From IMG/VR virus record IMGVR_UViG_2681813004_000012, positions 1-7,978 of that record: 7,978 nucleotides of DNA. One strand, written 5' to 3'. The position numbers and the translations under genes were made by a program. The stretch's first letter is position 1; each line of letters starts with the position of its first letter. Positions 2,653-2,814 of the stretch are shown here, piece after piece. The notes under the pieces were generated by a model. It ran no database searches and was not told the DNA's origin. It saw nothing but the letters and a program-made list of their open reading frames with translations. The stretch is from a virus (Duplodnaviria > Heunggongvirae > Uroviricota > Caudoviricetes).

Positions 2653-2814
2653 TTAGAGAGCATTCCGCATTTTCTCCCGGTACTTCAACCACCAAGCAAG
2701 TCCCTGAACCAACACTGAGTTTTCTGACATCCCCTCTTCCTTAGCGATGCGTTTCACCTCCTCCTTAAAACGGTACGGATACCGAAGAGTTGTCTTCACT
2801 TCATTCTTTTCCAT
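2653..2814 (-). CDS. arc: Arc-like ribbon-helix-helix DNA-binding protein, 53 aa (not in the supplied ORF track)
   Basis: Hand translation of the minus strand gives MEKNEVKTTLRYPYRFKEEVKRIAKEEGMSENSVLVQGLAWWLKYREKMRNAL, stop TAA at 2655..2653. Strong SD AAGGAG 6 nt upstream of the ATG at 2814..2812. The beta-strand/helix/G-x-S-x-N-S/helix pattern is typical of the Arc/MetJ family. Lies immediately upstream of ant on the same strand. Confidence 0.75.
   Translation of the reverse strand: MEKNEVKTTLRYPYRFKEEVKRIAKEEGMSENSVLVQGLAWWLKYREKMRNAL

Follow-up and report, generated by a model that had tools for sequence, protein, structure and literature searches.

A small open reading frame that probably encodes the Arc-family repressor of a P22 immI-type antirepressor cassette in an Escherichia coli lambdoid prophage

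Comparison of the cassette with P22 immI

In the annotated immI region of phage P22, mnt is divergent from arc (162 nucleotides, nt), which is followed by the gene of the 300-amino acid (aa) antirepressor Ant, while the arc-ant spacer is filled by sar, a 70-nt antisense RNA whose terminator overlaps the arc stop codon and whose promoter, Psar, lies 6-34 nt inside ant. The sar RNA pairs with ant mRNA and blocks Ant synthesis (PMC12197685). A set of mnt, arc, sar, and ant inserted in a late operon has been described for P22-like phages as the "ant moron", and immI has been described likewise (PMC2629481). In Edwardsiella phage GF-2, ORF-22 is annotated as an 'Arc-like repressor' (YP_009126625.1) and its neighbors ORF-21 and ORF-23 as an 'Arc-like transcriptional regulator' and the 'anti-repressor Ant', respectively, although no experimental work on ORF-22 was found in the literature searched; a P22-like immI region with Ant, Mnt, and Arc has also been noted in the related phage Edno5 (PMC6372524). 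Here, we analyzed a small open reading frame (ORF) at positions 2653..2814 of a 7,978-nt stretch of viral DNA (positions 1 to 7,978 of IMG/VR record IMGVR_UViG_2681813004_000012, referred to as the window). The window carries the tail operon of an E. coli lambdoid phage on its minus strand, and a prophage of E. coli PK8241 matches the region at 98.8% identity. We consider it probable (about 0.82) that the ORF encodes a small Arc-family ribbon-helix-helix (RHH) repressor filling the arc slot of an immI-type ant moron between tail genes L and K of an E. coli lambdoid prophage.

A preliminary description of the window, made from the sequence alone, had placed the small ORF where arc sits relative to ant in P22, and the comparison with annotated immI confirmed a part-for-part match. 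As in P22, a mnt-like gene is divergent from the arc-like gene and ant, the arc-like ORF is 162 nt long, and a spacer, here of 71 nt, precedes ant; this three-gene order also recurs in all the homologous loci examined. The RHH domain of the Mnt-like protein shows 47% identity to that of P22 Mnt across 43 aa. The window Ant and P22 Ant share 65% identity across the C-terminal 168 aa, and the N-terminal domain of the window Ant is Bro-N. The small protein itself resembles P22 Arc in its length (53 aa), in being encoded by the first gene of an arc-ant operon that is divergent from mnt and has a sar-type antisense RNA in its spacer, and in its RHH register, with an R-aromatic-P motif at the strand end and G-x-S-x-N-S where the chain turns into helix B. 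Unlike Arc, it has K, T, and R rather than Q, N, and R as the DNA-facing strand residues, its helix B is tryptophan-rich (AWWLKY), and the two proteins are only 38% identical over 29 aa. The loci differ as well, since the control region of the window has three similar pseudo-palindromes where P22 has a distinct Oarc and Omnt, and the host phage is a lambdoid siphovirus with its cassette between L and K.

The ORF runs on the minus strand from an ATG at 2814..2812 to a TAA at 2655..2653, which are exactly the positions first reported, although the strand had not been stated. Its 53-aa product is MEKNEVKTTLRYPYRFKEEVKRIAKEEGMSENSVLVQGLAWWLKYREKMRNAL, of which residues 8-43 had been quoted previously. 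The Shine-Dalgarno sequence AAGGAG, whose spacing had been called ideal, is indeed present at 2826..2821, 6 nt before the ATG, and homologous cassettes have Shine-Dalgarno-like purine runs at the equivalent place ahead of the small-ORF start. No longer ORF overlaps 2653..2814 on either strand. The preliminary description had also proposed that the frame be examined in homologous cassettes. It is kept, with the same neighbors, in all 14 cassettes examined, which come from several genera. Nei-Gojobori counting on four distinct 162-nt alleles (window, Citrobacter, Enterobacter-type, and Pectobacterium) yielded ratios of nonsynonymous to synonymous divergence (dN/dS) of 0.04-0.07 in six of six pairs at dS values of 0.58-1.92, meaning that synonymous sites are near saturation while the protein is 81-94% conserved. 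Judged from these comparisons, the arc-like ORF is a real gene that is translated and under strong purifying selection as a protein. In three Salmonella alleles of the small ORF (P0004, P0006, and P0007), 8 or 16 residues (EEVKRIAE) of helix A are duplicated in tandem and in frame.

Arc-family membership of the small protein

Searches with the single sequence were of limited use. With phmmer against solved structures, Arc variants were only marginal (E 0.03-0.4), and a word-indexed homologue search returned close relatives only (11 clusters at ≥71% identity). Because the single-sequence structure search was only marginal, the family assignment required a family profile. An exhaustive profile search of 1.84 billion proteins identified 25 representatives at E ≤ 1e-3 and reached Arc-annotated relatives. 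Using a profile of 10 sequences from which P22 Arc was excluded, hmmsearch against the PDB retrieved single-chain Arc (1.9e-9), wild-type Arc (1.8e-5), and Mnt (0.031), while hhalign placed residues 8-47 of the small protein on Arc 9-48 over 40 columns (95.9%, E 5.5e-9). PHROG 582, 'Arc-like repressor', covers the whole protein (E 1.6e-10). The profile search that the preliminary description had suggested as a check thus revealed homology to P22 Arc.

Twenty sequences, namely 18 family members or relatives, the 57-aa slot protein of cassette L002 (L numbers denote our cassette records), and P22 Arc, align without gaps across the core with P22 Arc in register, and 14 of the 20 individually match Pfam Arc. 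In this alignment, R11, A24, G28, S30, N32, and Q37 of the small protein correspond to Arc R13, A26, G30, S32, N34, and Q39, and the signature residues R11-Y12-P13 and G28-M29-S30-E31-N32-S33 fall in register with Arc R13-W14-P15 and G30-R31-S32-V33-N34-S35. The relatives vary little or not at all at R11, G28, S30, and N32. The aligned positions we take to be, in the Arc-operator structure (1PAR), the last base-contacting residue of the strand and the phosphate-contacting N-terminus of helix B. The AlphaFold2 monomer model (pLDDT 80) has an extended N-terminus and two helices (14-27 and 31-52), and its top Foldseek matches are RHH proteins (VapB26, ORF56, Arc, CopG, and AmrZ). By sequence, the small protein, though divergent, genuinely belongs to the Arc family; it falls short on one formal point, the Pfam threshold. 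The core of the preliminary description, a small Arc-type RHH gene, is therefore well founded, being supported by selection, by profile homology to Arc, by a predicted helix-turn-helix after an extended N-terminus, and by the match to immI.

Antisense RNA, operators, and alternative readings

The arc-ant spacer of the window contains a candidate sar-like antisense RNA, whose 5' hairpin complements the ribosome-binding site of ant and is followed by a GC-rich terminator hairpin plus U-run overlapping the arc-like stop codon. The Rfam sar model (RF00262) matches over its full length at 2583..2649 on the antisense strand (28.5 bits, E 0.018) and also matches L002, L003, and L013 in the same slot. 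The element is like P22 sar in strand, position, length (~70 nt), two-hairpin shape, a terminator over the arc stop codon, and a promoter inside ant; its terminator hairpin and -10 box even align nearly base for base with P22 sar. Unlike P22 sar, however, elements of the window type score 27-30 bits against a gathering threshold of 43 and so escape current Rfam annotation. The -10-like hexamer of the Psar-like site is conserved in all cassettes, and nine cassettes including P22 share a common RNA shape, with a 5' hairpin bearing the complement of the ant ribosome-binding site followed by the GC-rich terminator hairpin and U-run. Alignment of the terminator stem revealed compensatory changes in 10 of 13 pairs. 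In the same nine cassettes, the fold of the antisense strand is favored over that of the sense strand by 5-14 kcal/mol and has 3-6 G-U pairs as opposed to 0-1, an asymmetry suggesting that selection acts on the antisense transcript and not on the mRNA.

The ant starts of the window (2567..2581, minus strand), L003, L005, L009, L011, L013, and P22 were also compared. Antirepressors with unrelated N-terminal domains (Bro-N, KilA-N, and P22_AR_N) all start with M-x-S/N/I-I/L/V-A, and the antisense promoter -10 (TATACT, TAAACT, TACACT, TAAATT, or TACAAT) overlaps ant codons 3-4. Thus, a regulatory DNA signal appears to constrain the N-terminus of Ant.

The divergent control region (2815..2916, 102 bp) includes two perfect 18-bp direct repeats at 27-bp spacing, an inverted repeat around 2842, and three 15-bp pseudo-palindromes, designated O1 to O3 (Table 1). 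Three of the five ATGCCAT heptamers of the window are located here and cluster at O1. A candidate Pant-like sigma-70 promoter could serve both the arc-like gene and ant, and other cassettes have promoters at the same position (TTGCCA-17-CATTAT and the better TTGACT-16-TAAATT and TTGACA-16-TAAATT). If the candidate promoter is real, its -35 would be covered by O3, its -10 by O2, and its transcription start by O1, as with Omnt in P22. No SOS (LexA) box was found in or near the cassette, and LexA control of ant was consequently rejected.

By analogy with P22, the arc-like gene and ant would be cotranscribed from one promoter in the divergent control region, which the Mnt-like protein would hold off in the lysogen. 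The arc-like protein would dimerize, insert its beta-ribbon (K7, T9, and R11 facing DNA) into the major groove of a control-region operator, and shut its own operon soon after switch-on, which would limit antirepressor synthesis, while the sar-like antisense RNA would block ant translation. The small protein had been proposed as the key regulator of the cassette, which goes further than the data allow, as it is one of three negative regulators alongside the Mnt-like protein and the sar-like RNA.

It had likewise been proposed that the small protein binds the repeats at 2837..2897. Across 14 cassettes, however, the motif class of the repeats follows residue 13 of the Mnt-like protein (V, N, or T), which is aligned with the DNA-contacting residue N11 of Arc; this covariation is qualitative, as a scan of genome contigs yielded only 3 loci, not enough for statistical testing, and the cassettes are not phylogenetically independent. 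Mnt-like proteins with KFVVRFP or KFVLRFP (the window, L017, and L018) accompany ATGATGGCAT with an ATGGCAT half-site, those with KFNLRFP (L002, L003, L010, and L012) accompany ATGGTG, and those with KFTVRFP (L005, L009, L011, L013, and L016) accompany TAGAGGCAA. All three elements within each cassette share one half-site type. The correspondence holds whatever the small-ORF allele, and small ORFs with the strand KTTLRYP are found alongside the V class as well as the T class. Between the window and its sister cassette in Shiga toxin (Stx)-converting phages, the Mnt-like proteins differ at only three residues, all of which are in or beside this strand. Because the motif class follows Mnt-like residue 13 regardless of the small-ORF allele, the repeats at 2835..2892 are more likely operators of the Mnt-like protein than of the small protein, and the proposed binding is unsupported as stated. 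The best candidate for an operator of the arc-like protein is O1. Among the elements, only its core, AGGCA-N3-TGCC, occurs in the KTTLRYP cassettes of the V class as well as in those of the T class. Of the seven KTTLRYP cassettes, five (the window, L013, L016, L017, and L018) have the exact core and two (L005 and L009) a degenerate one. Since each gene is physically linked to its nearest DNA, the comparison of cassettes assigns no operator to the small protein.

Several results weigh against the ORF being the arc gene of the cassette. The protein matches Pfam Arc (PF03869) over residues 9-39 (profile positions 8-38) with 17.5 bits (E 0.0038), which is below the gathering threshold of 20.4, and an NCBIfam search produced no match (nor did one with Ant). 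Hence, of its designation as a textbook Arc-type RHH protein, Arc-type stands by profile homology, whereas textbook does not. The AlphaFold2 monomer has no beta-strand, which is expected because the strand forms only in the dimer, but is not positive evidence, and the Foldseek matches all have E > 0.4, which is not significant for a 53-residue monomer. The candidate promoter agrees with consensus at only 8 of 12 positions and is below the scan threshold, the repeated operators co-vary with the Mnt-like beta-strand rather than the small ORF with none demonstrably the arc-like protein's own, and the DNA binding, dimerization, and autoregulation of the small protein are properties that we infer from P22. 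One might accordingly suspect a chance ORF or a degraded pseudogene, untranslated and with its sequence kept for a DNA or RNA function, given that it is short, below both family thresholds, and labeled 'hypothetical protein' in RefSeq. This is already refuted by the outcome of the selection test, with its low dN/dS and nearly saturated synonymous sites, and the purine runs ahead of the start in other cassettes, the Salmonella insertions that stay in frame, and Arc homology in register across 40 residues all speak against it too. We consider it very improbable that the protein is instead an RHH antitoxin or another autoregulator unrelated to ant control, such as one member of a toxin-antitoxin pair. 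RHH proteins this small are often antitoxins, VapB26 and other antitoxins are among the weak sequence and fold matches, and some aligned relatives match CopG_antitoxin or HicB with weak E-values, but the best profile matches are to Arc itself, the spacer has a sar-like RNA directed at the ribosome-binding site of ant, and nearly all loci have an antirepressor gene downstream (Bro-N, KilA-N, or P22_AR_N plus P22_AR_C) that lacks any toxin domain. In the window, that gene matched no toxin family in Pfam or PHROG and encodes a Bro-N plus P22_AR_C antirepressor, and the toxin-antitoxin reading was rejected on gene context.

An alternative that deserves more attention, although we regard it as unlikely, accepts the Arc-family protein but leaves it without an operator of its own, in which case it would compete for or co-bind the three sites of the Mnt-like protein or modulate that protein through mixed oligomers. 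This would imply a regulatory logic unlike that of P22, in which Arc and Mnt have separate operators. The presence of one half-site type per cassette, following Mnt-like residue 13 with any small-ORF allele, is what such sharing predicts, and the two proteins are paralogous RHH domains with 35% identity over 37 aa. Conversely, the exact O1 core in five of seven KTTLRYP cassettes, spanning the V and T classes, is as expected if the small protein reads O1, and linkage alone could make the distal repeats travel with the Mnt-like gene. Furthermore, we know of no mixed RHH dimers of Arc and Mnt. Similarly doubtful is a corresponding immI variant with one set of operators for both paralogous RHH repressors, where a single Mnt-like beta-strand residue (V/N/T13) would switch the immunity specificity. 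An Arc-family repressor in the arc slot of an immI-type cassette remains the reading that we favor.

Relatives, annotation, and setting of the cassette

The immI-type antirepressor module is already known, and the gene in the window is a correct but ordinary example that leaves the current understanding of such modules unchanged. Its product is 94% identical to GF-2 ORF-22 and is found in the same three-gene arrangement, but GF-2 has a myovirus background and different Mnt-like and Ant partners. In Stx-converting phages, the same slot is occupied by a 57-aa 'Arc family DNA-binding protein' (WP_001154345.1), also annotated as 'Arc-like repressor' (e.g., Stx2a_WGPS8 gp51). The L-K cassette of these phages is otherwise ~92-93% identical to that of the window, with a Mnt-like gene 97% identical, yet the slot protein is only 35% identical over 43 aa with the strand KLNLRLP, and it is accompanied by a different proximal palindrome and an N13-class Mnt-like protein. 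The preliminary description considered the small gene easily missed by automated annotation. RefSeq/PGAP calls the ORF (WP_000414201.1) in nine of nine carriers among 5,426 complete E. coli genomes, with eight identical proteins and one at 90.7%, albeit as a 'hypothetical protein', while in some older phage records of related cassettes the small genes are indeed left out. The practical value of the analysis is therefore in annotation, as a divergent Arc subfamily just under the Pfam and NCBIfam thresholds bears the hypothetical label in E. coli RefSeq; fixes for this subfamily and for the sar-like RNA, which is under the Rfam threshold, are by-products. Together, the arc-like gene, sar-like RNA, and Mnt-like gene make up a mobile module for antirepressor control that is complete and can affect prophage induction, also in the Stx-phage relatives that have the sister cassette, and the natural V/N/T Mnt-like variants with their matching operators offer a tidy system for studies of RHH specificity.

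Table 1. Features of the window, ordered by position.
Feature	Position	Strand	Evidence or remark
I-like tail assembly gene	330..977	-	
Tail gene K	875..1651	-	JAB + NlpC/P60
ant, 304-aa antirepressor	1667..2581	-	Bro-N 3.6e-19, P22_AR_C 2.3e-26; PHROG 245 'anti-repressor Ant' 4.5e-107
Psar-like promoter, GTGAAA-17 nt-TATACT with upstream TG	2547..2575	+	Promoter scan 9/12; 6-34 nt inside ant, the P22 Psar offset
Candidate sar-like antisense RNA	2582..2655	+	Rfam sar match, covariation, strand asymmetry, P22 likeness
arc-like gene, 53 aa, probable Arc-family RHH repressor	2653..2814	-	ORF, selection, profile homology
Shine-Dalgarno AAGGAG	2821..2826	-	6-nt spacer (TGATCA) to arc-like ATG; read from sequence
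O1, proximal 15-bp pseudo-palindrome ATGGCATTATGCCTT	2835..2849		Inverted repeat; ~+1..+15 of candidate promoter, P22 Omnt position
O2, 15-bp pseudo-palindrome AAAGCAATATGCCAT	2851..2865		In direct repeat 2853..2870; overlaps candidate -10
Candidate Pant-like sigma-70 promoter for arc-like + ant	2856..2884	-	TTGCTA (2884..2879), 17 nt, CATATT (2861..2856), start near 2849
O3, 15-bp pseudo-palindrome ATAGCAATATGCCAT	2878..2892		In direct repeat 2880..2897; overlaps candidate -35
mnt-like gene, 106 aa, divergent from arc-like	2917..3237	+	Pfam Arc 1.6e-19; PHROG 1287 2.8e-50
Terminator-like hairpin + T-run	3218..3245	-	Directly after gene L stop, overlapping 3' end of mnt-like gene
Tail gene L	3254..3952	-	Pfam Phage_tail_L 8.8e-100
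109-aa tail gene, lambda M position	3952..4281	-	RefSeq 'phage tail protein'
Tape measure gene	4940..6838	-	

The three genes of the cassette form a 1.6-kb insert between L and K, and the Mnt-like protein combines an Arc-family N-terminal domain with a helical C-terminal extension. The terminator-like hairpin that follows gene L would, except under antitermination of the polymerase, keep tail-operon transcription out of the cassette and out of gene K. The module of Mnt-like, Arc-like, and Ant proteins is mobile and was found in five settings, in which the C-terminal portions of Ant and of the Mnt-like protein vary. It lies between L and K in the window and Stx phages, between K and I in L009, and between Q and the lysis genes in L005-L008, while L013-L015 have it between a gpJ-like gene and a tailspike gene and L002 and GF-2 among myovirus baseplate genes. 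The operators of L017 are nearly identical to those of the window, which is surprising for an enterobacterial prophage module given that this record is titled Chryseobacterium sp. 18061; the label may reflect contamination or assembly mislabeling. In the Pectobacterium-type cassette L010 (3001..3640), a MUG113/T5orf172 gene comes immediately after the small Arc-like gene, with no spacer, hairpin, or sar-like element, and an ANT-domain gene is located ~1.5 kb further on.
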